This document shows, piece after piece, positions 3,916-47,407 of a stretch of DNA of 64,000 nt. Both the position numbers and the translations under genes were made by a program. Source of the stretch: Bacteroidales bacterium (GTDB lineage Bacteria; Bacteroidota; Bacteroidia; Bacteroidales; F082); NCBI GenBank assembly GCA_017539045.1, contig JAFYHS010000012.1, positions 109,124 through 173,123 on the forward strand, written 5' to 3'. Every line of letters starts with the position of its first letter. Position 1 is the first letter of the stretch. The notes under the pieces are model-generated. The model searched no databases. It saw only the letters and a list, made by a program, of their open reading frames with translations, and had not been told where the DNA came from.

Positions 3916-3927
3916 AATCGAAACATC

Positions 3928-5616
3928 ATGAAAAGATATATTCTCATCATTTGTGCAGTAACAATAGCTTTAGCCTCCTGCACCAAGAACTTCGAAGAGA
4001 TGAACAAAGACCCGTTCTCGCCGACGGGAACGACCATCGAGGCCTTGTTTAACGGTGTGGTAAGCTCCTTGCAGCAGAGCATGAACGAGCAGTTCTACCT
4101 GCAAAACGAGATTTGGTACCCTGAGACGGAACTCGGCGCCTTGACGTCAGAGTCATGGGGTAACTCGCAGATAGGAACCTCAGAGCTTTGGACGAACTAT
4201 TATCTCATGCTGTCCAACATCCGTGAGTTGGAGAAACGCTTCGATGCGTACAACGAGGAACAGGGCGATGATGCCGTTTGTGACAAGGTGCGTGCCCAAC
4301 TCAACATCCTGAAGGCCTATCAGACCTTTAAAGTCACGGATATCTTTGGCGATATGCCTTATTCGCAGGCGGGTCGTATTTGGGATAACCCCTCATCGCA
4401 GGCCACCATGAAACCCGAATGGGACACCCAAGAGAGCATCTACAAATCGCTGTTGGAAGAGCTGGTATGGTCGCGCGACCTCTTGCATGCCGACTCCGTC
4501 ACCACTGCTAGCGGCAACGATTATTACAAGCTGCCTTATGACGTGCTGCTCAACAACGACTACACACTTTGGGCCGAGTTTGCCAACTCCCTCATCTTGC
4601 GCCACGGCCTGCGTATGTACGACAAGGATCCCAACTATGCCACACCTTTGCTGGTGGAGGCCTATAATTTCATCTACTCGAAGTTGAGTGCTTCGGGTGG
4701 TGTGGCTACGGGAGGCGCCATCTGCTTGTGGCCCAGTGTGTTGGGCACTAGCTGGGACACCAACTGGTCGTTCCGCGAACATAAGCACCTCCGTATGGGT
4801 GAGACCATCTGGAGCTGCCTCTCCTCGACCGACGACATGGACGGCAGCGGCATCTTCGACTACCGCACCTACCTCTTCTTCGACACAAGCCACAAGAACG
4901 ACAGCTTCCCCGACGGTGCCTGGCGTCCTTACCCGCAGATCCGTACCCTTGAGACGCCCACCGAAGGTGGTTCGCCTTATGCCCAAAGCCGTGATGGCAG
5001 TTATACCTTCAAAGGCCCATCATGTCTCTTCTCTCCCTTCAATTACTATCTCACCCGTGACGAGAGATACGTGCCGCAGATACTGGTCACCTACGCCGAT
5101 GTGCTCTTCATGAAAGCCGAAATCGAGGTTAGGAACATTGGCGGTATCATGCCTCCGCTGAATGCCGACGAATCCATTCGTTCTGGCGTCTACCAATCGT
5201 TCCTCTTCTGGACCCACATACCGCAACAAACCAGCCGCTGGACTTATTTTTATACGCCATACACCAACTATATCGGCAATTTGGATATTTGGTCGTATTG
5301 CAACAACATGGCGGCCAACGTGATGAACTACGCCGTATGGATGAATCCCGAATATGACGGCAGTCAGGAGTTTTACCTGAAGATGATCTACGAGCAGCGT
5401 TGGCTCAACCTCTTCCGTCAGCCTTGGGAAGCCTGGGCCTTAGCCCGCCGCACCATGGCGACGCCGACCACCACCAACCATGCCAAGCTGACTTCGTTCC
5501 GTATGGAATATCCCCAGAAGGAAATCGAATACAACTATGAAAACTATGCCGCACAGCTCGCTCGCATGTCGCATGGCGACACGAGGCAAACCAAGGTGTG
5601 GTGGAATGAGTTTTAG
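3928..5616 (+). CDS. SusD/RagB-family nutrient-binding outer-membrane lipoprotein
   Basis: Lipoprotein signal with lipobox (MKRYILIICAVTIALASC). 562 aa, located 12 nt downstream of the SusC-like gene, with an N-terminal region typical of SusD-like_2 proteins. Confidence 0.85.
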   Translation: MKRYILIICAVTIALASCTKNFEEMNKDPFSPTGTTIEALFNGVVSSLQQSMNEQFYLQNEIWYPETELGALTSESWGNSQIGTSELWTNYYLMLSNIRELEKRFDAYNEEQGDDAVCDKVRAQLNILKAYQTFKVTDIFGDMPYSQAGRIWDNPSSQATMKPEWDTQESIYKSLLEELVWSRDLLHADSVTTASGNDYYKLPYDVLLNNDYTLWAEFANSLILRHGLRMYDKDPNYATPLLVEAYNFIYSKLSASGGVATGGAICLWPSVLGTSWDTNWSFREHKHLRMGETIWSCLSSTDDMDGSGIFDYRTYLFFDTSHKNDSFPDGAWRPYPQIRTLETPTEGGSPYAQSRDGSYTFKGPSCLFSPFNYYLTRDERYVPQILVTYADVLFMKAEIEVRNIGGIMPPLNADESIRSGVYQSFLFWTHIPQQTSRWTYFYTPYTNYIGNLDIWSYCNNMAANVMNYAVWMNPEYDGSQEFYLKMIYEQRWLNLFRQPWEAWALARRTMATPTTTNHAKLTSFRMEYPQKEIEYNYENYAAQLARMSHGDTRQTKVWWNEF

Positions 5617-17591: not shown

Positions 17592-17662
17592 GGTACCTTG
17601 CCCGAGTGGTTAGGGATCGGTCTGCAAAACCGGGGACGGCGGTTCGAGTCCGCCAGGTACCT
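17592..17662 (+). tRNA. tRNA-Cys (GCA)
   Basis: Hand-folded cloverleaf. Acceptor stem GGTACCT/AGGTACC, 3-bp D stem CCC/GGG, anticodon stem TCGGT/ACCGG with loop CTGCAAA (anticodon GCA), T arm GGCGG-TTCGAGT-CCGCC, and discriminator U, which is typical of tRNA-Cys. CCA is not encoded. Confidence 0.9.
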
Positions 17663-24135: not shown

Positions 24136-24177
24136 CATTCTCAAAGGAGTCATTGCGGACTCCGATCCGCAATCTCC
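24136..24177 (+). repeat. Hairpin repeat family A, copy A1
   Basis: cattctcaaaggagtcattgcggactccgatccgcaatctcc; internal stem attgcgga/tccgcaat. Lies 27 nt upstream of GIY-YIG gene 1. Confidence 0.85.
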
Positions 24178-24204
24178 TGAGCAACACGACACAACCCAAT
24201 AAAC

Positions 24205-24597
24205 ATGTCACATCAAGGCTTTGTTTACATACTAACAAACAAGTACAACACAACGTTGTATATTGGTGTGACTAATGATTTAAAACGTAGAATTGCCGAA
24301 CATAAACTCCATATTAATAGTGGGTTTAGTGACAAATACAACGTTGAAAAGCTTGTATATTACGAAACCCACGAACAAATGTATGATGCTATTTCGCGAG
24401 AGAAGCAACTGAAAAATTGGCATAGAAAGTGGAAAGAGGATTTAATAAAGGAAAACAATCCTGAGTGGAATGATTTAGCTGAAAGCATCGGTTTGGATGA
24501 AGAGTATGTGCAATCAGTAAAAGAGCATTATGAGGACATGAGTACTGCTGAAGCGTCGTCCAAAAGTGTAGGAGATTGCGGATCAAGTCCGCAATGA
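24205..24597 (+). CDS. GIY-YIG nuclease family protein (small URI-domain protein, COG2827-like) with an extended C-terminal tail
   Basis: GFVYILTNKYNTTLYIGVTNDLKRRIAEH...KLVYYETHEQMYDAISREKQLKNW covers the GIY...YIG, R and E motifs. The last 9 codons and the stop are supplied by an inverted copy of hairpin repeat family A. Confidence 0.85.
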   Translation: MSHQGFVYILTNKYNTTLYIGVTNDLKRRIAEHKLHINSGFSDKYNVEKLVYYETHEQMYDAISREKQLKNWHRKWKEDLIKENNPEWNDLAESIGLDEEYVQSVKEHYEDMSTAEASSKSVGDCGSSPQ

Positions 24598-24598
24598 C
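24571..24598 (-). repeat. Hairpin repeat family A, copy A3 (inverted)
   Basis: ggagattgcggatcaagtccgcaatgac is the reverse complement of the A1 core except in the loop. Overlaps the last codons and stop of GIY-YIG gene 1. Confidence 0.85.
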
Positions 24599-24673
24599 GT
24601 TTCACGGCGAAGTATATTCAAAATGCGCGGTTATTGTTATTACAGTTAGAAAAACCTACTTAAACAAATCATT

Positions 24674-24715
24674 CATTCTCAAAGGAGTCATTGCGGACTC
24701 CAATCCGCAATCTCC
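24674..24715 (+). repeat. Hairpin repeat family A, copy A2
   Basis: Identical to A1 over 42 nt except for one loop base (g to a). Lies 30 nt upstream of rfbA. Confidence 0.85.
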
Positions 24716-29138: not shown

Positions 29139-30898
<1,760 letters not shown>

Positions 30899-30933: not shown

Positions 30934-32223
30934 ATGAACATAGCTGTCGCAGGTACCGGCTACGTCGGCCTGAGCATCGCCACCCTGTTGGCCCAACACA
31001 ACCACGTCACCGCGGTGGATGTCATCCCCGAGAAGGTGGACTTGATCAACCATAAGAAGTCACCCATCCAGGACGAATATATCGAGAAATACTTGGCCGA
31101 GAAAGACTTGGACCTCACGGCCACCCTCGATGGTGCCGCAGCCTATCGCGACGCCGAGTTCGTCGTCATCGCCGCCCCCACCAACTACGACCCGCAGAAG
31201 AACTTCTTTGACACGAGCCACGTGGAAGAGGTCATCGACCTCGTCCTGAGCGTCAACCCTGATGCGGTGATGGTCATCAAGAGCACCATCCCTGTGGGTT
31301 ACACCCGTAGCCTCTACGTGAAGTATGCCGCCAAAGGCGTGAAGAAGTTCAACCTCTTGTTCTCGCCCGAGTTTCTGCGTGAGAGCAAGGCCTTGTATGA
31401 CAACCTCTATCCAAGTCGTATCATCGTGGGTTACCCCAAACCCATTCAGGGTTATGATGTGGAAAACGATGCCATCTGCAAAGTGGTCACTCAAGACTTG
31501 GAAGCCAAAGCACATCAGTTTGCTGATTTGCTGAAACAAGGTGCCATCAAGCAGGATGTGCCTACGCTCTTCATGGGCATGAAGGAGGCCGAGGCAGTGA
31601 AACTCTTCGCCAACACTTATCTGGCCCTGCGTGTGAGTTATTTCAATGAACTCGACACCTATGCCGAGGTGAAAGGCCTCGACCCGCAAGCTATCATCGA
31701 AGGCATCTGCCTCGACCCGCGCATCGGCACGCATTACAACAACCCATCGTTCGGTTATGGCGGTTACTGTCTGCCCAAGGACACCAAGCAGCTGTTGGCC
31801 AACTACGAGGACGTGCCGCAAAACATGATGAGTGCCATCGTGGAGAGCAACCGCACGCGCAAGGACTTCATCGCCGACCAGGTGCTGAAGAAAGCAGGCT
31901 ACTACGACCAAGGACAGTATAACGCTGCCCAGGAGAAACACTGCGTCATCGGCGTGTACCGCCTGACGATGAAGTCGAACAGCGACAACTTCCGTCAGAG
32001 CTCCATCCAAGGCGTGATGAAACGCATCAAAGCCAAAGGTGCGGTGGTCATCATCTACGAACCCACGCTGAAGGATGGCTCGACCTTCTTCGGCAGCCTG
32101 GTGGTCAACGACCTCGCCAAGTTCAAGGCTCAGAGCCAAGCCATTATCGCCAATCGTTATGATGCCTGCCTGGATGATGTAATCGATAAAGTTTATACAA
32201 GGGATATTTTTAAGAGGGACTAA
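30934..32223 (+). CDS. ugd: UDP-glucose 6-dehydrogenase
   Basis: [20 protein letters not shown]...FSPEFLRE...[10 protein letters not shown] (catalytic Cys); 429 aa. Confidence 0.9.
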
Positions 32224-32240
32224 ATAAGATGTAAAAGTGA

Positions 32241-32291
32241 GCTTTCCATGTCATACCGACCGACGTAGGAGGGAGTGTATCTATGGAAAGC
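32241..32291 (+). repeat. Hairpin repeat family C, copy C-a
   Basis: gctttccatgtcataccga...gagtgtatctatggaaagc; outer stem gctttccat/atggaaagc. Confidence 0.75.
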
Positions 32292-32327
32292 GGCACAAAG
32301 AAACAAGGTTTAAAGGACGGTTTTAGC

Positions 32328-32370
32328 AAGCATAGATACACTCGCCTTTTGGGCTCGGTATGACATGCTT
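32328..32370 (-). repeat. Hairpin repeat family C, copy C-b (inverted relative to C-a)
   Basis: aagcatagatacactc...tcggtatgacatgctt. Its reverse complement shares catgtcataccga...gagtgtatctatg with C-a. Confidence 0.75.
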
Positions 32371-32393
32371 TCTAAAACCTGCAGAAAAACAAA

Positions 32394-33788
32394 ATGTTCA
32401 ACAAAACTGACCCATCCTACTTTGACGGTCCATGGACCTTCGAGAAGACCGAACACGCCGTGCTCGGCCTCTGCAAGATCATCGATCGTTATGCCCATAA
32501 GCTGACACTGGAAGACCTGCAGAACGACTCACGTTGCGCCCGCATTCCGGACCTCAGCCTCGATAGGGTGCAGGAGGTCATCGCCGCCGTGGAAGCCAAG
32601 CTCTGGCGTGGTGCTAAGTTCTTCGAGAACGAGGTGATCTATCACACTGGTCCGCATCACGACGACATCATGTTGGGTCTCATGCCCTTCATCAACAGGC
32701 AGTTGAGGACGCCTACCAATCAGGTGCATTTCGCCATCATGACCTCGGGTTATCACTCCGTCACCGATGAATTCCTTCAGAATGCCTTGGAAGACACCTT
32801 GGACTACCTGCATCAAGGCCGCATCCAGATGGTGCTTTACCCCGATTTCTTTGAGCGGGGCTACCGTTTCAAGCAGGAGAAGGACATCCACCATTACCTC
32901 GACAACGTAGCCCGCAAAAACCCCGATGAGATGCGTCGTGGCTTCTGCCATCGCATCCTTCGCGATGCCGTAGGGCTGTGGGGGCTGAAGAACGTCGCCG
33001 ATGTGGAAGCACGCTTCAGGATGGAGATCGAAAACCTCAAGGAGGGTAAGCCCAACAGCAGTGAGCTCCAGAAGCTCAAAGGCGAGATCCGTGAGTTTGA
33101 AGAGGAGCTCGTCTGGGCCTATGCCGGCACCGCCTTGGACCATATCCATCATCTGAGGTTAGGGTTGTATGAAAGTAAAAGCGAGGTGCCTGAGCCTGTC
33201 GAAGGCCCGACTAATAATGAACCGGCCCTTCGACAAGCTCAGGGACCTTGGTCTCCCAACCGTCAGCGTGACGTCGAGCCCATCCTCAATCAATTGCGTG
33301 CGCTGAAGCCCACCGTCATCACCGTAGCCATTGACTCGGAGGGTCAAGGACCCAACACGCACTACAAGGTCATGCAGAGCATCGCCGAGGCCGTCAGGCT
33401 GTGGGGCGAGGAGGCCGACCTCAGCCAGCTGAGGATCTTCGGCTACCGTAACGTGTGGTCGACCTTCCATCCTGCTGAGGCCAACGTATACGTGCCCGTG
33501 TCGCTCAACGCTTTTGCAGTGTTCGAGAAGGCCTTCAAAGACAGTTACCTGACGCAATATAAGGCAGAGTTTCCCAATCCCGACTTCGACGGACCTTTCA
33601 GCGAGCTGGCGGAGCAGATTTGGGTGAAGAACTATAAGGATATCCAGTTCATCCTCGGGAAGAACTTCTTCTACGAAAACGACCACCCGCTCATTCGCGC
33701 CACGCATGGACTGATTTTCTTGAAGGAAATGGACGCGAAGGACTTTGTGGGCTTGGCGGAGGAGATGAAACAAAAGATAAATGTGTAG
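32394..33788 (+). CDS. PIG-L/LmbE-like domain protein (related to the C-terminal half of long Bacteroidales NagB-type proteins), carrying an in-frame repeat insertion
   Basis: HTGPHHDDIMLG resembles the PIG-L HPDD motif, and DSEGQGPNTHYK resembles the second conserved block as I recall it. The segment VPEPVEGPTNNEPALRQAQGPW coincides with hairpin element B2. Confidence 0.45.
   Translation: MFNKTDPSYFDGPWTFEKTEHAVLGLCKIIDRYAHKLTLEDLQNDSRCARIPDLSLDRVQEVIAAVEAKLWRGAKFFENEVIYHTGPHHDDIMLGLMPFINRQLRTPTNQVHFAIMTSGYHSVTDEFLQNALEDTLDYLHQGRIQMVLYPDFFERGYRFKQEKDIHHYLDNVARKNPDEMRRGFCHRILRDAVGLWGLKNVADVEARFRMEIENLKEGKPNSSELQKLKGEIREFEEELVWAYAGTALDHIHHLRLGLYESKSEVPEPVEGPTNNEPALRQAQGPWSPNRQRDVEPILNQLRALKPTVITVAIDSEGQGPNTHYKVMQSIAEAVRLWGEEADLSQLRIFGYRNVWSTFHPAEANVYVPVSLNAFAVFEKAFKDSYLTQYKAEFPNPDFDGPFSELAEQIWVKNYKDIQFILGKNFFYENDHPLIRATHGLIFLKEMDAKDFVGLAEEMKQKINV
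33185..33247 (+). repeat. Palindromic repeat family B, copy B2 (inside the PIG-L-like gene)
   Basis: ggtgcctgagcctgtcgaaggcccgac-taataatgaa-ccggcccttcgacaagctcagggacc. The arms pair at 19 of 21 positions by my count. Confidence 0.85.
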
Positions 33789-33791
33789 TTT

Positions 33792-33850
33792 AAGCCGCCT
33801 ATGTCATTCCAAGCGGAGGATGTGCGACTGGAATCTATAGGCGGCGGCTT
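33792..33850 (+). repeat. Hairpin repeat family C, copy C-c
   Basis: aagccgcctatgtcattccaagcggaggatgtgcgactggaatctataggcggcggctt; outer stem gccgcctat/ataggcggc and inner stem attcca/tggaat. Confidence 0.8.
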
Positions 33851-33873
33851 ACAATACTAACAAACAATCTATT

Positions 33874-34155
33874 TTGAATCAGTATTGGGTATATATGATG
33901 CAGAGTGCTAATGGACGAGCACTATATACAGGAGTCACAAACGACCTAGTTCGTCGTGTTGGAGAGCATAAAGAGGGCAAAGGGTCCTTTTTTACTGCAA
34001 AGTATAAATGTCATAAATTGGTTTATTATGAAGATTTTGGTTTGATGGACCAAGCCATTCTTAGAGAGAAGGAAATAAAGAATATGACACGGGCAGATAA
34101 AGAAAAGCTTATTGATACTATCAATCCACAACGACTAGATCTATTAGAACAATAA
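33874..34155 (+). CDS. GIY-YIG nuclease family protein (small URI-domain protein, COG2827-like)
   Basis: YWVYMMQSANGRALYTGVTNDLVRRVGEH...KLVYYEDFGLMDQAILREKEIKNM; 93 aa. The TTG start from the track preserves the first beta-strand. Sits between family C hairpins. Confidence 0.8.
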   Translation: MNQYWVYMMQSANGRALYTGVTNDLVRRVGEHKEGKGSFFTAKYKCHKLVYYEDFGLMDQAILREKEIKNMTRADKEKLIDTINPQRLDLLEQ

Positions 34156-34160
34156 AGATA

Positions 34161-34211
34161 GCCTTCCATGTCATTCCAAGTGGAGGTTGTGTGACTGGAA
34201 TCTATGGAAGG
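34161..34211 (+). repeat. Hairpin repeat family C, copy C-d
   Basis: gccttccatgtcattccaagtggaggttgtgtgactggaatctatggaaggc. The core is nearly identical to C-c, and the outer stem differs but still pairs. Confidence 0.8.
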
Positions 34212-34251
34212 CGGCATGAAAGAAAAGACATTAAATATATGACGGTATTAT

Positions 34252-34300
34252 AAAGCATAGATTCCAAACGCACGTTCCCCTGCAAGGAATGACATGCTTT
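34252..34300 (-). repeat. Hairpin repeat family C, copy C-e (inverted relative to C-d)
   Basis: aaagcatagattccaaacgcacgttcccctgcaaggaatgacatgcttt. Its reverse complement shares catgtcattcc...tggaatctatg with C-d. Confidence 0.75.
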
Positions 34301-34323
34301 ATAATCCCTGCAAAAACAACTCT

Positions 34324-34911
34324 ATGGACTTCCTATCTCACCATTGGCTCGACATCACCACCACGGCCCTCGGCCTGGCCTACATCCTCCTGGAATACAA
34401 GGCCAGCGTCTGGATGTGGGTCGTCGGCTTCGTGATGCAGAGCCTCGGCATCGTCTTATACTACCAGAAAGGCCTCTACGCCGACTGCGGCATGGAGTTC
34501 TACTACCTCGCCATGACCGTCTACGGTTTCATCGCCTGGATGCGTCACAAGCAGAAGGTCGCTGACCTCCCCATCCGTCACATGCCCAAGAAGATGGCCT
34601 TTATCTGGCTGGGTGCCGGTTTGGCGATCTGGGCTCTCATCTATTTCGTCTTGAGCCGTTTCACCAACTCCAACGTCCCTGTGGCCGATGCCTTCACCAC
34701 CGCCTTGAGCATCGTGGGCATCTGGGCTTTGGCACGCAAGTACCTCGAGCAGTGGTTCGTGTGGATTGTGGTCGACATCGTTACCAGCGCATTGTATTTC
34801 TACAAGGACATCCCCTTCAAGGCCAGCCTTTATGCCTTGTATGTCGTCATCGCGGTGTTCGGCTACTTCAAGTGGAAGAAGATGATGCAGGAAAAGGCCC
34901 AAACGGCCTGA
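34324..34911 (+). CDS. pnuC: Nicotinamide riboside transporter PnuC family
   Basis: The pattern of transmembrane spans and LEYKASVWMWVVGFVMQSLGIVLYYQKGLYADCGMEFYYLAMTVYGFIAW match PnuC. I chose the ATG at 34324 because the track start at 34294 lies inside hairpin C-e. Confidence 0.8.
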   Translation: MDFLSHHWLDITTTALGLAYILLEYKASVWMWVVGFVMQSLGIVLYYQKGLYADCGMEFYYLAMTVYGFIAWMRHKQKVADLPIRHMPKKMAFIWLGAGLAIWALIYFVLSRFTNSNVPVADAFTTALSIVGIWALARKYLEQWFVWIVVDIVTSALYFYKDIPFKASLYALYVVIAVFGYFKWKKMMQEKAQTA

Positions 34912-37669: not shown

Positions 37670-38179
37670 ATGAAAAGAATTATTCTTTATATACGATCTG
37701 GTATTCTTAATATATGGCATTTTCATTCATTATCAAAAAAAATAGTATTTGGTAGAAATGTCAATATTGAGGGAAATGTTACTTTTGGCAAAAAAGTGAT
37801 TCTTGATGATAATGTTGAAGTAAGAAACAGAACCAAAGAAGAAGCCACTGTTGGAGATTTTGTATCTATCAATCGAAATACCGTAATCCGTGGAAAAGTA
37901 AATATTGGGGAATCAGTTTCTATAGCACCAAATTGTATGATTATCGGTGCAAATCATCATTTTGAAGATACCAAGAAATCAATAAAAGAACAAGGAGTTA
38001 AAACCAAAGGAATCGTTATCGAACCAGATGTTTGGATTGGAGCAAATTGTTGTGTATTAGATGGTGTGACAATTGGTAAAGGTTCTATAATTGGAGCTGG
38101 TTCAATTGTTACAAAAACAATTCCACCTATGAGTATCGCAGTTGGGAATCCTTGCAGGGTAATAAAACAAAGAACCTAA
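37670..38179 (+). CDS. Hexapeptide-repeat (left-handed beta-helix) acetyltransferase
   Basis: The repeats IGESVSIAPNCMIIGANHHF...VWIGANCCVLDGVTIGKGSIIGAGSIVTKTIPPMSIAVGNPCRVIK match the maltose/galactoside O-acetyltransferase-like pattern. Confidence 0.75.
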   Translation: MKRIILYIRSGILNIWHFHSLSKKIVFGRNVNIEGNVTFGKKVILDDNVEVRNRTKEEATVGDFVSINRNTVIRGKVNIGESVSIAPNCMIIGANHHFEDTKKSIKEQGVKTKGIVIEPDVWIGANCCVLDGVTIGKGSIIGAGSIVTKTIPPMSIAVGNPCRVIKQRT

Positions 38180-39609
38180 TGGGACTTAAAAACCAAGCAG
38201 TTAAAGGTGTTGCATGGACCTCTATAGGAACAATTGGGTCTGGGCTCTTGAATTTGTTGGTTACAATCATATTGGCAAGATTACTGACGCCACATGATTT
38301 TGGTATTATCGAATTGTTGGTTATTTTTTCTAGTTTGTCAGATATTATCGTAGATAGTGGTTTTTCGCAGGCTGTCATCAAGGACAATAATGCAACAGAT
38401 ACTGATTTATCCTCGGTGTTTTGGCTCAACTTGTCCATTGCAATAGTTTTGTATCTGATTTTGTTTTTTGCTTCTCCTTTTATTGCACGTTTTTATGATG
38501 CACCTATAATGGAAAATCTTTCTAAAGTGGTGTTTTTAACGATTATTTTTAATTCTTTATCTGTTATCCAAAATGCAAATCTCAGTAGAAAATTAGCATT
38601 TCGTCCTTTTGCTTTGGCATCGATTATTAGCATTGTTATATCGGGAAGTATAGCTATCTTTCTAGCAATGCAAGGTTATGGTGTGTGGGCTTTGGCGTTT
38701 AATTTGGTTGGTTTCAGTTTTTTTAGAATGTCTGTGTTATGGTTGTTAAGTGGTTGGCATCCAAAATTCAAATTTAGTCATGTTTCTGTAAAAAGATACT
38801 TTTCTTTCGGTGTAAATCTTTTAATTCAAGGGCTGTTAGATAAGCTGGTGACCAATTTGGAGTCACTTATCATTGGGAAAATATACACAAAACAACAACT
38901 TGGTTATTTTTCGCAAGGCCGTAAACTTGATTCTTATGTGACCCAAGCAACCAATAATATAGTCTTAAAAGTATCGTATCCAGTTCTGTCAAAAATCAAA
39001 AACAATGAAACTCATTTAAAAGAGGGGTATAGAACAATTGTGGGCGTGACAATGTGTTGTATATCTCCCATAATGGCAATCATGTTTTTTGGGGCCGAAT
39101 ATATCATGAATGGTGTTTTTGGCGTGCAATGGTTGCCAGCTACACCTTATCTTAGACTATGGTCGATCTGTGGTTGGTGCTTAGTTGTATATTCCATCTT
39201 TATAAACATATTTTTAGTGAAGGGGAAAAGCAAACAATTGTTGCACTGTTCTATAGCAAAACAGGTAATGAGGATATTGGTTATAATTTGTTTGGTGAGA
39301 ATCAGCATTATGCATATGATGTTGGGTATAGTTGCTGTTACGCTCCTTACAGGTTTGATGTATATTTTTTTCGGAGGAAAACTAATTGATTATTCATTAG
39401 GTGAGTTTTTTAAAGACATTTCAATTACTTTTATTTCAGTTGTGATCGCTGGTTTATCAGCTTTCATCATTACACCAATGATAATAGCTTCAAATGGCAT
39501 TTGTGCTTTGATAGTATTGGTTATGATTTTAAGTTTGGTTTACCTTTTATTATTGTTGTTGTTTAAGAGCCCATATTTACAAACTATTTTTTCAATTATA
39601 AAAAAATGA
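38179..39609 (+). CDS. Polysaccharide flippase (Wzx, MOP superfamily)
   Basis: About 477 aa with about 12 hydrophobic spans. N-terminus [42 protein letters not shown] is typical of Wzx. The ATG overlaps the upstream stop (TAATG). Confidence 0.8.
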
Positions 39610-40088
39610 AACGCTTAAAAAGTATATTCGGAATTTTTCTGTTGAGAAATGTTTATAGCGTACATCTATTTCATGTTCTTTCTAGAGGAAGGCTGCGCCC
39701 TGCCATATTGAGATTTTGTGGGGCAAAAGTTGGAAAAAATGTTCAGCTTGGGCCTTTTGTCTATTGGGACCCTCATCTTGATATGTTGGAAGTTGGAGAC
39801 AACGTAATTGTTAGTCCCCAGGCTTGTTTTATTTTTCATGACCGGGATTTGTCTGAGTTTGGTTATGGAAACTTGTATTTGAATGTTCCACACAAGTTAC
39901 AAAAAACAACCCTTTGCAATAATTGCAGAGTGGGAACACGTGCTTTAATTCTTCCAGGTGTAACGATTGGAGAAGGCGCGTGTGTGGGAGCTGGGGCGTT
40001 GGTGACAAAAGATGTCCCTGCTTGGTCAGTCGTGGCCGGCATCCCCGCCAAAATCATTAAAACATTTGCCCCAAGCGATGAGTTATAA
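39606..40088 (+). CDS. Hexapeptide-repeat acetyltransferase
   Basis: [44 protein letters not shown]; ATGA overlap with wzx. Confidence 0.7.
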
Positions 40089-41055
40089 AAAAACAATTGC
40101 CTCGTTTGTGGGAAAAACACCACTTTGGAGATTGGGAGAACCTTTCAGAAACATGCCGCGGATTTTGTTTTATCATGGCGTAACCCAAGGATATTATGAT
40201 GCAAAGGTACAAGCAAATCAAATACTACTAAAGGATTTCAAGGAGCAGATCGAGTTCTTAAAACGTCATTATGTATTCATTTCAATAGATGAGTTTTACG
40301 AACGGTTTATCCTTAAGGATAAGTTTTGTGGAAAGGAAATCATCCTTACTTTTGATGATGGATACAAAAACAATTTGACCATCGTTGCACCTTATCTTCA
40401 ATCTTTAGGCATTCCTTTCATTGTTTTTGTCTCCACCGGTTGTATTGAGGATTTTGTTCCGACTTATTATATTAGATCTGCTTTATTGTCGAAGAAACTT
40501 AGTAAAATTGATGTTACCACAATAAAAAAACAGTTTTCTATAACTGAAGAAACCATAATTCCCATATTGGAGGAATTAATAACTCTTATAAAAACATCCG
40601 ATGACATAGTAGTACAAAATGTTATAGCTGAGATAGAAATGCAATTGGGAGCCACTAATAGAGAGGAGATTAATAGTCATTTTGAATCTGAGCGCATTTT
40701 GTCATGGCGAGACGTTGTAGAACTTAATAATTTGGGTGCCATTATCGGTTCGCATTCAGTCAACCATAGCATTTTGCATAAGAACCAGCAAATTGAAACA
40801 ATAGATTATCAATTAAAAGAAAGCAAAAGGCAGATAATTGACCATGTCGGAAAATGTAGATATTTTGCTTTTCCTAACGGCGACCGCTTTTCTGTTTGTG
40901 CAGACTCTTTGAAACTTTCAAAAGACTATTATGACATGAGTTTTGCGGTTAATGGGAAGTCTGTTGGTTTTCAAGACCCCGTTTGTTACGTTTCGAGGAT
41001 TGGGGCGGCTTTTGAGTTAAGCATACTAAAAACACAGCTTTCATTATTATCATAG
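40078..41055 (+). CDS. Polysaccharide deacetylase family protein (NodB homology domain)
   Basis: [11 protein letters not shown]...[10 protein letters not shown] motifs. I prefer the ATG at 40078, which overlaps the preceding stop by 11 nt, over the track start at 40012. Confidence 0.7.
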
Positions 41056-41056
41056 T

Positions 41057-42454
41057 ATGATAGAAAACCAAATAATACGGAGGTCTTTGTTTTCTTACTT
41101 GATCCTCTTGTTGTTTTCGGTTTCTTTTACACTTATTGTGCAAGGATTTCAAGACTTTTTGTTGTCTTTTATCCTTCCTTTGTTTGACATTTTATTCTTA
41201 GATTATTATTATCACAAAGGGCTTGCTAAAACCGAAAAACACTTTGTTCTTTCAATCTTTTTTTGGTCATTATTTATAAGGGTTGTAACCGTCTTCGTGA
41301 TGGGCAAAATACTAATTGCCTATAATGGAATGCCTTTTATCTCCGAAAAGGATGATTTTATTTATCAAATGACCTCAGTAGAAATATTGGAACGGTGGAA
41401 GATGTCGGGTATCGGTTTTTATGACGATATTAGGTTTTCTTCTGATTCCTATTCTGGATTTCCGAATTTTAGCGCAGCTTTGATGTATCTATTTGGTACT
41501 TCGTTTTGGGTTCCTAGAATTGGTAACGCTTTCCTTTCTTCATTTACTGTCGTTTTGGGTTACAAGATGTGCAAAAAATATTCAACAATGGAATCGGCAA
41601 GATTTGTCGGTGTGTTGTTATGTCTTTTCCCTATTACAATCATTTTTTCTTCTCTTCAACTAAAGGACACACTACTACTATTCTTCATTGTGTTAGCTCT
41701 TTATGCTTCTATTGATATCTTACAAAACACCAAACCATTTAAGTCTATTATCTTACTAATCATTTCATTTCTTGGTATTTCTTTTGGCAGACCAGCAGCT
41801 ATTGTTCCTATTGCCGGTGGTCTTATATTTATAATGGTTCACAATCTATTTAATAAAAAATCTTACCATGGTTTTATAAAAGTTTTTAGTTTGGTGGTGG
41901 TTTTTGTGCTTTTAATCTATGCTTATCAGTATCTTAATTCTTTGGGGTTTGAATCAATGGGGGATTATTTTGAAACGCGTTCCGATTCGATGAGAAATAC
42001 AGGTATTCAGGATAGTAATTCTTTGATTAAAAACTATTCTATTTCTAGGTTTTTTGGTGCATATTTATATTTATTAGGAAGTTTCTTTATGCCCCCGGCT
42101 TTGTTAGTTGATCTTGGGGAAGTAATTAATTATCCCGCATGGGGAGTTTTGCAGCATTACGCTTTTTTGCCAGTTTTAGTACCAACCGTTTTTATTTGTT
42201 ACAAAAACCGCAAGGAACAACACATTCCTTTTTTCCTTTTAGTTGTTTATCTTTTATTCTTAGTTGGTCAAGCGAATTCCATGTTCACGGTGTTTTCGCC
42301 CAGACAAACAATGGGTAGTGTTTTTATTATGTACCTTTTAATCCCAATGTATCAACCAACAAAACAAAACTGGCACGGTTTGGTGTTGATACTATCTATA
42401 ATTGTTTTGGCTGCATATAATATTGTTCGCCTTTACTCGCATGGATTGTTTTAA
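41057..42454 (+). CDS. Polytopic membrane protein; candidate polymerase (Wzy-like) or GT-C-fold glycosyltransferase
   Basis: 465 aa and highly hydrophobic. It is the only non-Wzx polytopic protein in the locus. Its architecture resembles the 16099-17508 protein (acidic first loop SEKDDF, then ...GFPNFSAALMYLFG...). Confidence 0.5.
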   Translation: MIENQIIRRSLFSYLILLLFSVSFTLIVQGFQDFLLSFILPLFDILFLDYYYHKGLAKTEKHFVLSIFFWSLFIRVVTVFVMGKILIAYNGMPFISEKDDFIYQMTSVEILERWKMSGIGFYDDIRFSSDSYSGFPNFSAALMYLFGTSFWVPRIGNAFLSSFTVVLGYKMCKKYSTMESARFVGVLLCLFPITIIFSSLQLKDTLLLFFIVLALYASIDILQNTKPFKSIILLIISFLGISFGRPAAIVPIAGGLIFIMVHNLFNKKSYHGFIKVFSLVVVFVLLIYAYQYLNSLGFESMGDYFETRSDSMRNTGIQDSNSLIKNYSISRFFGAYLYLLGSFFMPPALLVDLGEVINYPAWGVLQHYAFLPVLVPTVFICYKNRKEQHIPFFLLVVYLLFLVGQANSMFTVFSPRQTMGSVFIMYLLIPMYQPTKQNWHGLVLILSIIVLAAYNIVRLYSHGLF

Positions 42455-42703
42455 AAGCTGTTCTTTAAATGCAACTAACTGACTATAAATCCTCTCAATA
42501 CGGCGTCATATTGATTGGGACAGCAATGAACCAACGAGTTTTTGGTATGTCATTAAAGACATGCCTATTGCCATCTCCGGGTGACTTATGTGTGGTGGTT
42601 AAGAATACTTGTTAATCTTTTATTTCCATTTCGCAAGTTGTTTGGTAACAGCAAATTAGAGTATTTACTTCGGTTTGAAGCCATCAATAGAAATGAATAT
42701 TGA

Positions 42704-43852
42704 ATGAACATAGCACTTCTAGCTTCTTGGAGCCTAGTCCAATCAGGTTCCTACATCTATATTCCTACCACGCATTATGTATATTTGAATTATGTGGCGG
42801 GCTTATATGATGAAGTTTATCTTATTAGCCCACTTTCAAAAGACGAGTCAAAAAAGAAGGGAAAGATTGTCAATTTTCCCAATGTGAGAATTATTCCGTT
42901 GCCTTATAATGGTAGTTATTTGGGCGCCTTGAAAAATAATATGGCATATCGTCGGGCTTTGCGTCAGGTGTGCGATAAGGTTGATGTGATTTATTGCCGA
43001 GTGCCCGACCCGTTCTCATGGATGCCCGCTCTGCTTTTCAAGAAGAAAACCATAATGCACTTCGTGGGCGACACAATCGATGCCACCCAACACAATGAAA
43101 AGTGGGGTTGGCTGAAGAAGCAAGTAATGATAGCTGGCTATCTGCCCGATTATTGGCTGACTTTGAAAGCCGCCCGAAGGAGCAAGGTCTATACCAATGG
43201 GCATCATTTGGCAGACAAATTGAAGAAGCATCGCATAAAGGCTATTCCTGTAATATCGTCAACCGTTTCTGAAAAAGATTTGCATGAGGACTTCAAAGCA
43301 TTGCCCATCGAAAAAGGGATCGTAAACATTACCTACATTGGCTACGTGCGCTTCGCCAAAGGAATGACTTGCTTGATGGAGTTTTGTAAGCGTTTGAAAA
43401 ACGAAAACATACAGTTCCATTTCCATTTGGTAGGTGTAGGGGAAATGTTTGATGATGTGAAAGCATTTATTGAGCGGGAAGTTTTGTCGGATAAAGTCAC
43501 CATGTATGGATATATTGATGATAAAGCAAAGATGAGCGAGATTTTACGGAATTCCGACCTGTTCTTTTTCCCATCCCTCTCTGAAGGGTCTCCTCGGGTG
43601 GTCATAGAAGCAATGGCCCAAGGAACATCTGTGATGTCCACCCCTGTAGGTTCGCTTCCTACAACCTTTGAAGATGGAAAGACGATTCGTTTCTTTGGCT
43701 TTGATGATGCTGAAAAAGCCATAGAAATAGTAAAAGAGTATCTCGCTGATCCTGTTTCTTTTGAAGCGCAACGGCAACTCGCCTACCGAATAGTGTCCGA
43801 ACGATTCACTATAGAGAAATTCCTTTCTAAAGTATTCAGTTATGAAGCATAA
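42704..43852 (+). CDS. Glycosyltransferase family 4 (GT-B)
   Basis: C-terminal EX7E region FFFPSLSEGSPRVVIEAMAQGTSVMSTPVGSLP. Confidence 0.85.
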   Translation: MNIALLASWSLVQSGSYIYIPTTHYVYLNYVAGLYDEVYLISPLSKDESKKKGKIVNFPNVRIIPLPYNGSYLGALKNNMAYRRALRQVCDKVDVIYCRVPDPFSWMPALLFKKKTIMHFVGDTIDATQHNEKWGWLKKQVMIAGYLPDYWLTLKAARRSKVYTNGHHLADKLKKHRIKAIPVISSTVSEKDLHEDFKALPIEKGIVNITYIGYVRFAKGMTCLMEFCKRLKNENIQFHFHLVGVGEMFDDVKAFIEREVLSDKVTMYGYIDDKAKMSEILRNSDLFFFPSLSEGSPRVVIEAMAQGTSVMSTPVGSLPTTFEDGKTIRFFGFDDAEKAIEIVKEYLADPVSFEAQRQLAYRIVSERFTIEKFLSKVFSYEA

Positions 43853-44354
43853 ACTATTGTTGATTTATTCGTGGTTGATTAGAACATTGCTTTTCTTTTT
43901 GCCAGATATTCCGTTTATTATGCGGTTTAGGGGGTGGCTTTATGGATTAGGGATGCTACATAAAGGCAAGAACTTTCAGTTGGCGCATTCCACTATTCTT
44001 AATACCATAGAAATGATATCAGTTGGAGAAAACGTATACATCGCAAATTTTTGTTCAATAATTGCCAACGGAAATATAACCATAGGTGATAACACTTTGT
44101 TTGGTCCAGGAGTGGTCATTTCATCTGGAAATCATAGATTTGAGGATGGTCTTTTCATCAAACAATCAGACAAAAAAGACGTGGCAATAGGAAAGAATAG
44201 TTGGGTGGCTGCAAATTGTACGATAGTCGGAGGCTCTGTTTTGCCAGAAAGTAGCATATTGGCCGCCAATTCTGTATTAACAAGCAAACTTGACGAGACT
44301 TTAGCAGGTTGTCTTTATGGTGGTACGCCAGCTAAATTTATCAAAAAGCTTTAA
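43842..44354 (+). CDS. Hexapeptide-repeat acetyltransferase (WcaF-like)
   Basis: ITIGDNTLFGPGVVISSGNHRF...VAIGKNSWVAANCTIVGGSVLPESSILAANSVL; overlaps the GT4 gene by 11 nt. Confidence 0.7.
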   Translation: MKHKLLLIYSWLIRTLLFFLPDIPFIMRFRGWLYGLGMLHKGKNFQLAHSTILNTIEMISVGENVYIANFCSIIANGNITIGDNTLFGPGVVISSGNHRFEDGLFIKQSDKKDVAIGKNSWVAANCTIVGGSVLPESSILAANSVLTSKLDETLAGCLYGGTPAKFIKKL

Positions 44355-46004: not shown

Positions 46005-47407
46005 TGATCAAAAAACGCATCTACCTCTGCCTCGCTCATATGAGCGACGCAGGCCTCGAACAGAAATATATACAAGAGGCCTTCGACACCAACTGGGTGG
46101 TGCCGCTGGGACCCAATGTCAATGGGTTTGAAAAGGACCTGGAGTCCTTTGTGAATGAGATTAAGGTCCCTGAGCTTGTCGAAGGGCCGACCTTCAATGA
46201 CGGCATTTCGACAGGCTCAACGACCTGCTTAAACAAACGTGTTGTTGCTCTCTCCGCCGGCACGGCGGCCATCCATCTCGCCTTAATCGCCTGCGGCGTG
46301 GGCCCTGGCGACGAGGTCATCGTGCAGTCGTTCACCTTCTGCGCCTCGTCCAACCCTATCACCTACCTCGGCGCGACCCCCGTCTTCGTCGACAGCGAGA
46401 AGGACTCGTGGAACATCGACCCCGAGCTGATGGAAGAGGCCATCCGCGACCGCATCGCCAAGACGGGCCGTAAGCCCAAGGCCATCGTGCCCGTGGCGCT
46501 CTATGGCATGCCTTACGACATCGACCGTATCATGGAGATTGCCAACCGCTACGACATCCCCGTCATCGAAGACGCCGCCGAAGGCTTCGGCAGCCGCTGG
46601 AAGGGACAGGTGCTGGGCACCTTCGGCCGTTATGGCGTACTCTCCTTCAACGGTAACAAGATGATCACCACCTCGGGTGGCGGCGCACTCATCTGCCCCG
46701 ACACACAGGCTTGGCAGCGCATCATGTGGCTGGCCACACAAGCCCGCGAGGCCTACCCTTATTACCAACATGAGGCCATTGGCTACAACTACCGCATGTC
46801 GAACATCTGCGCCGGCATCGGCCGTGGACAGATGACCGTCGCCAATGACCATATCAACCACCACAAGCATGTGCAGAAGATGTATGAGGAGCTGCTGGCT
46901 GGTGTGCTGGGCATACATGTCCACTCGCAGCCTTGTTCCCTTTACGACCGTCATGCCGGACTTGATCCGGCATCTCATGAGATTGCGGGTCAAGCCCGCA
47001 ATGACGGTATGCAGGGTGAGAAGTACGACAGTAACTATTGGTTATGCACCATCACCCTCGACCCAAGCCTGCACGTCAAAGGACAAGAAAACGCCTATAA
47101 GACCGTTATACAAGGTGCGGTAGGTGGTGCGGCAGGCGTGGTTCATGCCAGCAAGAGCGCCCACACCGACTGCGAGCCCAACGCCAACGTGGAGGCCTTG
47201 CGCGTCATCCTCGACCAGGCGGGCATCGAGGCAAGGCCCTTATGGAAGCCCATGCATAAACAGCCCGTCTATAAAGACGCTCCTGCCTATGTCAACGGCG
47301 TCAGCGAAAGCCTCTTCAAGGTAGGCATGTGCCTGCCCAGTGGCCCCTGTGTCAGCGACGAGGACGTGGACTATATCGTAACGTGTATCAAAAACGCTAT
47401 CATCTAA
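46004..47407 (+). CDS. DegT/DnrJ/EryC1-family sugar aminotransferase (PglE/WcfR-like) carrying two in-frame repeat-derived insertions
   Basis: EQKYIQEAFDTNWVVPLGPNV...ALSAGTAAIHLAL...SFNGNKMITTSGGGAL (PLP Lys)...YNYRMSNI...RPLWKPMHKQPVY. At 467 aa it is about 90 aa longer than family members I recall. Confidence 0.9.
   Translation: MIKKRIYLCLAHMSDAGLEQKYIQEAFDTNWVVPLGPNVNGFEKDLESFVNEIKVPELVEGPTFNDGISTGSTTCLNKRVVALSAGTAAIHLALIACGVGPGDEVIVQSFTFCASSNPITYLGATPVFVDSEKDSWNIDPELMEEAIRDRIAKTGRKPKAIVPVALYGMPYDIDRIMEIANRYDIPVIEDAAEGFGSRWKGQVLGTFGRYGVLSFNGNKMITTSGGGALICPDTQAWQRIMWLATQAREAYPYYQHEAIGYNYRMSNICAGIGRGQMTVANDHINHHKHVQKMYEELLAGVLGIHVHSQPCSLYDRHAGLDPASHEIAGQARNDGMQGEKYDSNYWLCTITLDPSLHVKGQENAYKTVIQGAVGGAAGVVHASKSAHTDCEPNANVEALRVILDQAGIEARPLWKPMHKQPVYKDAPAYVNGVSESLFKVGMCLPSGPCVSDEDVDYIVTCIKNAII
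46165..46225 (+). repeat. Palindromic repeat family B, copy B3 (inside the aminotransferase gene)
   Basis: ggtccctgagcttgtcgaagggccgacc-ttcaatga-cggcatttcgacaggctcaacgacc. Confidence 0.8.
46950..47005. repeat. Composite of two family A-like hairpins in opposite orientation, located inside the aminotransferase CDS
   Basis: gtcatgccggacttgatccggcatc + tcatga + gattgcgggtcaagcccgcaatgac. Translated in frame as RHAGLDPASHEIAGQARNDG. Confidence 0.8.

Follow-up and report, generated by a model that had tools for sequence, protein, structure and literature searches.

Hairpin units between ugd and pnuC

The DNA analysed here, referred to below as the window, is a stretch of 64,000 nt from a Bacteroidales bacterium of the F082 lineage (GenBank assembly GCA_017539045.1, contig JAFYHS010000012.1, positions 109,124 to 173,123 of the forward strand), and the element in question is a module of two hairpins at 32241-32393, directly upstream of a gene start. 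An original prediction made from the sequence alone had held that the structure of this module is under selection, that a second copy lies upstream of pnuC, and that it could be a mobile leader or terminator, a structured cis-regulatory RNA or a nuclease recognition substrate. That interpretation stood in part: the hairpin is maintained and the nuclease-substrate option is favoured, since the hairpin core is that of the repeats recognised by Ssn nucleases and an ssn gene flanked by the same hairpins is located about 1.5 kb downstream, but the leader or cis-regulatory RNA reading is not upheld. The genes of the region are, in order, a gfo-like gene (29930-30898), ugd (30934-32223), orf464 (32394-33788, encoding a PIG-L-like protein of 464 aa), ssn-1 (33874-34155) and pnuC (34324-34911), followed by sugar-nucleotide genes.

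Both hairpins of the module are copies of a unit of 50-65 nt that is present five times in the window, every copy being within 32.2-34.3 kb. The pattern ATGTCAT-N20-45-ATCTAT gave five matches in the window compared to 0.04 expected from shuffled sequences, and none elsewhere in the window. Each unit is composed of a variable outer stem of 7-15 bp, the boxes ATGTCAT (5') and ATCTAT (3'), an inner stem and a variable interior; the first AT of ATGTCAT pairs with the last AT of ATCTAT, leaving GTC opposite CT as an internal loop. The inner stem is ATAC/GTAT in units 1 and 2 (ATAC-type) and ATTCC(A)/(T)GGAAT in units 3-5 (T-type). Folded as single-stranded DNA, all five units were predicted to adopt the expected structure, with z values from -2.4 to -5.7, and the two modules that they form reached -5.0 (module 1) and -3.4 (module 2).

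Module 1 (32224-32393, plus strand) is an insertion of about 170 nt that fills the space from the stop codon of ugd (32221-32223) to the ATG of orf464 (32394). In it, a 17-nt lead precedes unit 1, a spacer separates this from unit 2, and a 14-nt tail follows. Unit 1 (32241-32291, plus strand) reads gctttcc-ATGTCATACC...GTGTATCTAT-ggaaagc, with the core ATGTCATACCGA..GAGTGTATCTAT (z = -2.4). Unit 2 is a short form of the ATAC-type in inverted orientation (32319-32379, minus strand; core 32332-32366; z = -5.3), in which the outer stem ggttttagcaagc/gctttctaaaacc pairs 32319-32333 with 32365-32379 over 13-15 bp (93% over 15 nt); a near-identical copy, outer stem included, was found in another genome (comparison locus L047). 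Unit 3 (33793-33848, plus strand; gccgcct-ATGTCATTCCA...TGGAATCTAT-aggcggc; z = -4.1) is located directly upstream of ssn-1, and unit 4 (34160-34215, plus strand; z = -3.7) flanks ssn-1 on its downstream side and also forms the left half of module 2. The right half is the inverted unit 5 (34244-34308, minus strand; core 34257-34295; outer stem ggtattataaagc/gctttataatccc; z = -5.7), after which a 15-nt tail (34309-34323) leads to the pnuC ATG at 34324.

Two modules of the same build, A(+)-spacer-B(-), are formed in this way, one by units 1 and 2 and the other by units 4 and 5, with 80% column identity over about 180 columns (32225-32400 aligned with 34145-34325). The blocks GGCGGCA, AAAGAAA, TTAAA, GACGGT and AAGCATAGAT are common to both spacers, and both modules end in a shared tail of 14-15 nt with CCTGCA(R)AAAAC, so that the recurrence of the architecture upstream of pnuC was correctly foreseen. 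The hairpin positions had also been right to within about 2 nt, as had the outer stems (gctttccat/atggaaagc, gccgcctat/ataggcggc and gccttccat/atggaaggc) and the inner stems (atac/gtat vs. attcca/tggaat); the inverted hairpins had been placed correctly, but their outer stems are much longer than supposed and extend over the whole of the spans given above. The core ends 27 nt (module 1) and 28 nt (module 2) before the respective ATG. For pnuC, the start at 34324 that had been assumed agrees with its homologues, which begin ATGGAYTTCC, whereas the in-frame ATG at 34294 given by the list of open reading frames falls within unit 5 and is a spurious start.

The gene ssn-1 (plus strand) encodes a 93-aa single-domain GIY-YIG nuclease (Pfam PF01541, residues 3-76, E = 3.6e-16; no second domain found) that is the candidate cognate enzyme of the T-type units, with unit 3 sitting 25 nt upstream and unit 4 sitting 4 nt downstream. 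A TTG start was assigned because it keeps the first strand of the GIY domain, the next ATG being at 33898. No NCBIfam model matches ssn-1, and the nearest solved structures are only the UPF0213 proteins 1zg2 (E = 1e-8) and 1ywl (E = 2e-5).

Probable kinship with Ssn nucleases and their repeats

In Neisseria, the 94-aa single-domain GIY-YIG nuclease SsnA acts on the repeat NTS (CGTCATTCCCGCGMAVGCGGGAATCYRG), the hairpin of which (NTS/SRM form CGTCATTCCCGCG..GCGGGAATC) is bound only as single-stranded DNA and on one strand only, and the cut falls a few nucleotides upstream of the hairpin (Chenal, 2025; Nat Commun, PMC11893778). In the same work, the GTC 5' of the palindrome was reported to govern cleavage and the C 3' of the palindrome to govern binding, an altered palindrome sequence abolished SsnA activity in Neisseria, and mutation of Y6, Y17 and E64 inactivated the enzyme. 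Ssn proteins belong to the GIY-YIG family cd10448, with E < 1e-10 to SsnA as the homology criterion, and across phyla their genes are flanked by Ssn-related motifs (SRM), for which the degenerate search sequence HGTCWY N0-2 YYVSBRH N0-5 WNVSBRG N0-2 RNCYNB was given (PMC11893778). The same superfamily had been described as 'CGTC-tagged' repetitive extragenic palindromes (REP), which are found in Bacteroidetes among others, include dRS3 of Neisseria and RPE-4 and RPE-6 of Rickettsia, form opposite-orientation dimers, have intragenic copies in repair genes and had no dedicated transposase known at that time; they are defined by CGTC at one end, a stem of 8-9 bp, a loop of 4-5 nt and a CCA-like tail (Di Nocera, 2013; BMC Genomics, PMC3733652).

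The locus resembles the Ssn/SRM arrangement in its gene, its hairpin core and the distribution of its repeats. The product of ssn-1 is, like SsnA, a single-domain GIY-YIG protein of about 93 aa with equal Tyr/Tyr/Glu spacing, in which Tyr7, Tyr18 and Glu65, conserved in an alignment with homologues flanked by SRM or NTS and with PDB 1zg2, correspond to the catalytic Y6, Y17 and E64 (SsnA numbering from PMC11893778). In a proxy comparison with a gammaproteobacterial homologue encoded directly beside an exact NTS (L360), and not with SsnA itself, ssn-1 showed 40% identity (E = 1.5e-20), and ssn-2, a second gene of the window described below, gave E = 6e-34. Oriented hairpin repeats flank ssn-1 on both sides, and their core GTCAT-TCC...GGA-ATC equals that of NTS at GTC, at AT...AT and at the trailing C. 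All units keep (T)GTC-ATTCC...GGAAT-C or GTC-ATAC...GTAT-C, that is, GTC 5' of an AT-initiated palindrome and C 3' of it, these core positions being largely fixed by the search pattern itself in the units collected from other genomes. In addition, the units are multicopy, mostly intergenic and often arranged in +/- pairs. They differ from NTS in having an interior that contains a further small stem in the T-type and an internal loop, CGA/GAGT, in the ATAC-type, and an extra covarying outer stem of 7-15 bp around the predicted cut site. The host also differs, being a rumen Bacteroidales of a kind not treated in PMC11893778, as does the proportion of intragenic copies, about 20% compared to 2% for NTS in N. 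meningitidis (PMC11893778).

With the CGTC-tagged REPs the units have in common that they are short tagged palindromes whose stems open with complementary A-T, that they form opposite-orientation dimers, that they occur in Bacteroidetes and that in-frame intragenic copies exist, especially in genes for replication and repair (here mfd and topA). By definition, however, they fall outside that group, as their tag is TGTC, the inner stem has 5-6 bp, the interior about 20 nt, and the tail is CTAT plus an outer stem; they are, moreover, far longer and bipartite, and an associated GIY-YIG gene is evident here. The short hairpin variant around ssn-2, AGTCATTGCGGAC..TCCGCAATCTCC, is nearer to the definition than units 1-5.

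Neisseria intergenic mosaic elements (NIME) are mosaic repeats bounded by dRS3. The modules resemble these and the bacterial interspersed mosaic elements (BIME) formed by REP pairs in enterobacteria in being composed of two inverted units with a semi-conserved linker and in building alternating tandem arrays, but BIMEs belong to the GTAG-REP/RAYT system and the linkers found here are unrelated to those of BIMEs or NIMEs. Such arrays were observed in a Limimorpha metagenome-assembled genome (MAG), where A-class (+) and B-class (-) units alternate with linkers of 29 and 50 nt and a period of 161 nt (L086, positions 1-700 and about 1200-1900).

When one genome per species was searched for the core pattern, at least 117 loci were collected, and what follows about copies in other genomes refers to the matches listed. 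Most of these were in rumen or gut Bacteroidales MAGs (F082, P3, RUG bins and 'Candidatus Limimorpha'). A version with a shorter loop, ATGTCATTCCCGC....GCGGGAATCTAT, was present in Anaerolineales, Nitrospirota and KSB1, and it was this version that led to the NTS/SRM literature. Contigs of one MAG labelled as a Firmicute (L029, L075, L100 and L201; DAIOUZ01, 'Candidatus Limiplasma sp.') carry Bacteroidales-type units and Bacteroidales orf464 synteny; this MAG is probably mis-binned or mislabelled.

The association of unit and ssn gene is reciprocal. Close relatives of ssn-1 (73-98% identical; L118-L122 and L234) are all flanked by T-type units and repeat the arrangement of unit 3 and ssn-1, and when the 117 loci collected by the unit alone were searched with a hidden Markov model (HMM) of the family, the only GIY-YIG genes detected were ones that adjoin units. 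More distant homologues, from an alphaproteobacterium and a KSB1 bacterium (L124 and L166; 48-54% identical to ssn-1), lie between + and - hairpins that match the published SRM pattern. A genome scan for the exact NTS yielded 120 loci, two of them with an ssn gene and neither of these in Neisseria, and exact NTS copies in other phyla likewise form +/- pairs. Other genomes yielded 16 convergent +/- pairs of the units described here, set 20-79 nt apart and with a conserved spacer pattern, seen by eye as GGCGG-N-AAAGRA..CTTRAAT-GACGG; a BLAST search of the module spacers against the other loci gave no matches.

The reciprocal association bears on whether the units could be substrates of another enzyme, such as a HUH transposase of the RAYT/IS200 type or another recombinase, with the GIY-YIG gene as a passenger. 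A short 5' tag, opposite dimers and mosaic arrays also mark REP/RAYT systems, and most units (over 100 loci) have no ssn gene nearby, the ATAC-type units of this sample never having one. Nevertheless, the tag is (C/T)GTC and not GTAG, and Di Nocera (2013; PMC3733652) reported that CGTC-type repeats do not flank any RAYT or IS200 gene; no GTAG tag was seen in the units of the window and the gene they flank is GIY-YIG and not HUH, although no systematic HUH/RAYT screen of the window was made. Flanking by units is specific to ssn and conserved across phyla, and the homologous enzyme binds and cuts the NTS hairpin (PMC11893778). We consider a different enzyme very improbable.

Selection on the structure, as originally proposed, was borne out in the sense of a maintained hairpin. 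In an alignment of 110 distinct T-type units from many genomes, taken with 13-nt flanks, the seven outer-stem pairs nearest to the core were paired in 89-100% of the units, with 3-6 pair types each. Covariation over the whole structure was 0.42 compared to 0.14 in shuffled alignments, none of 500 shuffles reaching 0.42, and 82% of cells were paired compared to at most 47% in slid registers. The covariation of the outer stem is not an artefact of ascertainment because the flanks lay outside the search pattern; the invariant core columns are uninformative in this respect. On the GTCAT strand, 30 G-T pairs were counted vs. 10 A-C mismatches, an excess which suggests that this is likely the folding strand. 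ATAC-type units, of which 27 distinct ones were found in other genomes, have perfect outer stems of 10-12 bp with very different sequences and a covarying apical stem (GCC/GGC, ACC/GGT, GGC/GCC). Outer stems so diverse and yet so perfect could originate from selection, from intrastrand repair in the hairpin state or from regeneration at each copying event.

The window contains a second Ssn/SRM set (24149-24712, plus strand), in which ssn-2 (24205-24597, 130 aa) is located between a galE-like and an rfbA-like gene. Its product matches the family HMM and the Pfam GIY-YIG model (E = 5.5e-18), is 48% identical to that of ssn-1, and owes its length of 130 aa to a frame that reads on into the downstream SRM, giving a C-terminus ..GDCGSSPQ. 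The surrounding hairpins are of the short variant GTCATTGCGGAC..TCCGCAATC, at 24149-24174 (+), 24574-24598 (-) and 24687-24712 (+), in a +/gene/-/+ layout, and the pattern of this variant gave four matches where none was expected. A convergent pair of short SRM-like hairpins with stems of different sequence, GTCATGCCGGACTTGATCCGGCATC (+) and GTCATTGCGGGCTTGACCCGCAATC (-), is found at 46950-47005. As a separate observation, the G+C content falls to 35-39% in the polysaccharide-gene region at 38000-44000, compared to about 52% in the rest of the window, and this segment may have been acquired horizontally.

Gene junctions with and without the units, and copies inside genes

The region was compared to 80 loci encoding relatives of orf464, in which the order gfo-ugd-orf464-pnuC is conserved; nearest to the window are RUG13196 (97-99% aa identity over five genes) and a Limimorpha MAG. 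At the ugd/orf464 junction, L198 (97% aa identity) reads ...GATTAATGTTT with stop and start overlapping in TAATG, and the gap is 0-8 nt in L207, L208, L210, L211, L213, L216 and L217, compared to 170 nt in the window, where module 1 fills it. The orf464/pnuC junction is empty (TAAcATG) in L207, L208 and L216, L217 reading ATGTAATGG; it contains a solo A-spacer-B module in L199 and L209, unit-ssn-unit-spacer-unit in the window, and a module followed by unit-ssn-unit-spacer-unit in L234. Other SRM variants occupy the ugd/orf464 junction elsewhere, of the GTCATTGCGG type in L234 and L206 (2400-2500) and of the CCATTCCCGCGCAGCGGGAATC type, which has no GTC tag, in L200 and L219 (2340-2500). Both modules are insertions into junctions of abutting genes, the same junctions being polymorphic for the empty state, a solo module, a module with ssn or other SRM variants, and the ugd/orf464 stop-start junction has been invaded independently several times. 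Because the insertion filled a junction of zero length, the constant distance to the ATG is simply the element's own right end of 27-28 nt. Without the segment that separates its two direct A units, the ssn cassette is the same as the solo module, so recombination between those units would produce the latter.

Two other origins were tried and rejected. The region is not a set of integron gene cassettes with attC sites, a candidate dismissed by reasoning and without an integrase search, since its open reading frames keep their synteny across relatives and it is the hairpins that vary. Nor do the outer stems come from insertion into pre-existing palindromes such as terminators, as intragenic copies have outer stems and the empty junctions have no palindrome.

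Two other insertions were also seen in the region. At the orf464/pnuC junction, the closest relative, L198, has no ssn cassette and carries instead (3886-4320) a gene for a 115-aa 23S-rRNA-intervening-sequence protein (PF05635, E = 2.6e-27), bracketed by short repeats of the TTGATAATTGA / TTCAATTTTCAAT type. Within orf464, an inverted pair of an unrelated repeat family, GGTCCCTGAGCYTGTCGAAGGGCCG (33184-33248, with further copies at 46169-46230 and 61964-61990), adds 22 in-frame residues (VPEPVEGPTNNEPALRQAQGPW); L198 and L199 share this insert, L202 and L207 have half of it, and L234 (90% identical), L210 and L213 lack it. Repeats of this family are frequent among the Bacteroidales loci and sometimes stand beside SRM units (L028, L036).

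These comparisons weigh heavily against reading the module as a structured leader RNA that regulates the downstream gene in cis, whether like a riboswitch or as a translational operator. The attraction of that reading is that the modules lie directly upstream of two start codons at a nearly equal distance and with a shared tail, that their hairpins covary, and that an insertion inside an operon implies a module that is transcribed or supplies transcription, with a side effect on orf464 and pnuC translation likely. Close relatives, however, have orf464 and pnuC with abutting stop and start codons and no module. The two downstream genes, PIG-L-like orf464 and pnuC, are unrelated and share no obvious ligand logic, and the hairpins of a module are inverted copies, so that a transcript would contain one in sense and one in antisense. 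With Rfam 15 at the gathering threshold, the window gave only a tRNA at 17592; even at E <= 1 the modules had no match, the search of 32100-34400 returning only sub-threshold miRNA-like matches on the unrelated palindrome at 33177-33256 (GGTCCCTGAGCYTGTCGAAGGGCCG family).

The context of the other copies, determined from crude open reading frame calls on the loci collected by the unit, points in the same direction. Intergenic units numbered 48 between tandem genes, 24 between convergent and 11 between divergent ones. In tandem regions 22 units were on the gene strand and 26 on the opposite one, revealing no orientation bias, and the median distance to the upstream stop was 80 nt and that to the downstream start 134 nt, so no preference of other genomic copies for positions upstream of start codons was found. 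About 32 of 164 units (~20%) were located at least 150 nt inside open frames of 200 aa or more. An RNA leader is thus a most improbable explanation of the modules. In the reading as inserted SRM pairs, the modules separate formerly translationally coupled genes and are consequently very probably transcribed within the operon mRNA, and they may alter the translation of orf464 and pnuC, as a side effect only.

Alternatively, the hairpins could be REP-like elements acting on transcripts, as terminators, attenuators or 3'-end stabilisers of the upstream mRNA, with an incidental link to ssn. RNA roles have been proposed for many REPs (Di Nocera, 2013; PMC3733652), the hairpins are stable and placed downstream of stop codons, and units are over-represented between convergent genes (24/83 vs. 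95/569 of all intergenic regions of the same loci) and under-represented between divergent ones (11/83 vs. 82/569). Purifying selection on any inserted DNA, however, would produce such a convergent-gene bias just as well. No unit is followed by a T-run, and the terminator scan found no terminator-like site in or beside any unit, the flanks reading GGCGG or CTGCA; a terminator between formerly coupled genes would also silence orf464 and pnuC. The promoter scan detected no sigma-70-like site in the modules, the tool not covering Bacteroidetes-type promoters, and no TAnnTTTG was seen by eye. The copies within mfd, topA, a GH3 gene and other genes are a further difficulty, and the invariant ATGTCAT/ATCTAT core and the tight flanking of ssn would be left unexplained. 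We regard such a transcript role as improbable.

Among the genes carrying units internally, Pfam confirmed mfd (three genomes, at one site), topA, and genes for a FAD oxidase, a GH95 enzyme, a Mur ligase (two units), a TolC-like protein and a GH3 enzyme. The in-frame SRM-like units are at L057:3955-3994, L104:3937-3976, L075:6298-6337, L006:1930-1969, L082:4690-4725, L106:3746-3781, L021:5054-5093, L021:6011-6050 and L007:3586-3622. Intragenic units that are in frame in either orientation fit selfish DNA better than a transcript signal.

A series of alleles was obtained for one β-glucosidase gene, at the linker between the GH3 C-terminal and Fn3-like domains, from 80 metagenome contigs (L398-L477; also L037:1980-2100, L042 and L108). 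At a single codon position the linker is empty (...VSK-MDTLCK...), or has a forward T-type unit that adds 14 aa (AMSFQ...RESMA), or an inverted T-type unit. In a nested allele, a degenerate T-type unit has in its loop an inverted ATAC-type unit bearing its own outer stem of 10 bp, and in a triple-nested allele a third small hairpin (GAAATGC...GCATTC; GAAATGCWWWGCATTC..) is found inside the nested ATAC-type unit, all alleles being in frame. As read from these sequences, the series suggests repeated insertion into hairpin loops together with inversion in place. Rickettsia palindromic elements (RPE) are known for in-frame insertion within genes. The units and the second repeat family resemble them in lying in frame within functional genes, where they add 13-37 residues in linkers, but they are separate sequence families (except for RPE-4 and RPE-6, which are of the CGTC type) and the insertions described here nest in one another's loops.

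Proposed action, origin and significance of the modules

Taken together, the module is likely a non-autonomous inverted pair of SRM hairpins of the NTS/'CGTC-tagged REP' superfamily, for which binding and cutting by an enzyme is proposed from homology with SsnA. As judged from sequence, the units are a structural variant of the known Ssn/SRM kind that the published motif does not capture, arranged as a NIME- or BIME-like pair.

By analogy with SsnA, one DNA strand of each unit would fold into a hairpin when single-stranded, and the AT-initiated palindrome would then be preceded by GTC and followed by C. Replication, repair, conjugation or transformation could expose the GTCAT strand in this state, and a small GIY-YIG nuclease of the Ssn type would bind its hairpin and nick the single-stranded DNA a few nucleotides 5' of it, which would here be in the 5' arm of the outer stem. 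The ssn-1 product is the candidate enzyme for the T-type units, and the ATAC-type units of module 1 may depend on another paralogue; no enzyme is assigned to module 1, because no ssn gene was near ATAC-type units in the other genomes and a change of palindrome abolished SsnA activity. The A(+)-spacer-B(-) module would be the ssn-less form of the cassette unit-ssn-unit-spacer-inverted unit at 33.8-34.3 kb, and could have arisen by recombination between the two direct units flanking ssn or spread in trans like BIMEs, NIMEs or miniature inverted-repeat transposable elements (MITE). One possible benefit, again by analogy with Neisseria, would be to restrict or modulate recombination with incoming single-stranded DNA.

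The likeness to MITEs and to solo derivatives of insertion sequences is that the ssn-less module retains both terminal inverted units of the ssn cassette and is polymorphic for presence and absence among close relatives; the difference is that the associated protein is a nuclease without known strand-transfer activity. MITEs are marked by terminal inverted repeats plus a target-site duplication and derive from an autonomous element; inverted terminal units and an ssn-bearing counterpart were both seen here, but no duplication could be discerned.

Several points weigh against this interpretation of the modules. The published degenerate SRM sequence matches none of the five units, nor the short ssn-2 variant, and its sole match in the window (45122) looks like chance; the argument for membership was therefore built on the core positions and the associated gene. 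The interior is about 20 nt long where the published pattern allows 0-5, the tag is TGTC and not CGTC, and the outer closing stem does not exist in NTS. Formation of that stem would leave the predicted cut site base-paired, a state possibly unsuited to a single-strand-specific enzyme. None of the roughly 27 ATAC-type units of other genomes has an ssn gene within about 4 kb. The stop/ATG and GH3 junctions showed no target-site duplication, and even the canonical NTS is without an established mobility mechanism.

Cleavage and mobility we only infer. Going further, we suggest only tentatively, as a possibility somewhat on the doubtful side, that the units are an actively mobile hairpin element driven by a GIY-YIG nuclease and form a structural class of their own, in which the hairpin is bipartite and the outer stem renews itself. 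Such an element would insert at operon stop/start junctions, in protein linkers in frame and in the loops of existing hairpins, and flip in place.

The pairing of Ssn and SRM was described only in 2025. The Bacteroidales class of SRM is missed by the published pattern, and published counts of SRM-associated ssn genes thus probably underestimate the association. What makes the locus interesting is not so much the module as the clean natural evidence for mobility around it: at the same junctions, genomes that are 77-97% identical have alleles that are empty, contain a solo module or bear ssn, and evidence of this kind is needed to make a case for SRM-ssn-SRM cassettes and their ssn-less pairs as mobile DNA. 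As the units split translationally coupled genes and sit in frame in housekeeping genes, they matter for the expression of operons, and they affect the annotation of rumen MAGs through spurious starts (pnuC at 34294) and inserts of MSF..ES peptides. New pairs of hairpin and enzyme are also of practical interest as reagents for cutting single-stranded DNA. If the mobile-element reading were true, a single-domain Ssn nuclease would serve as the enzyme of transposition or homing in prokaryotic mobile DNA of a new kind, and the role of Ssn would go beyond that of a restriction-like factor for incoming single-stranded DNA.

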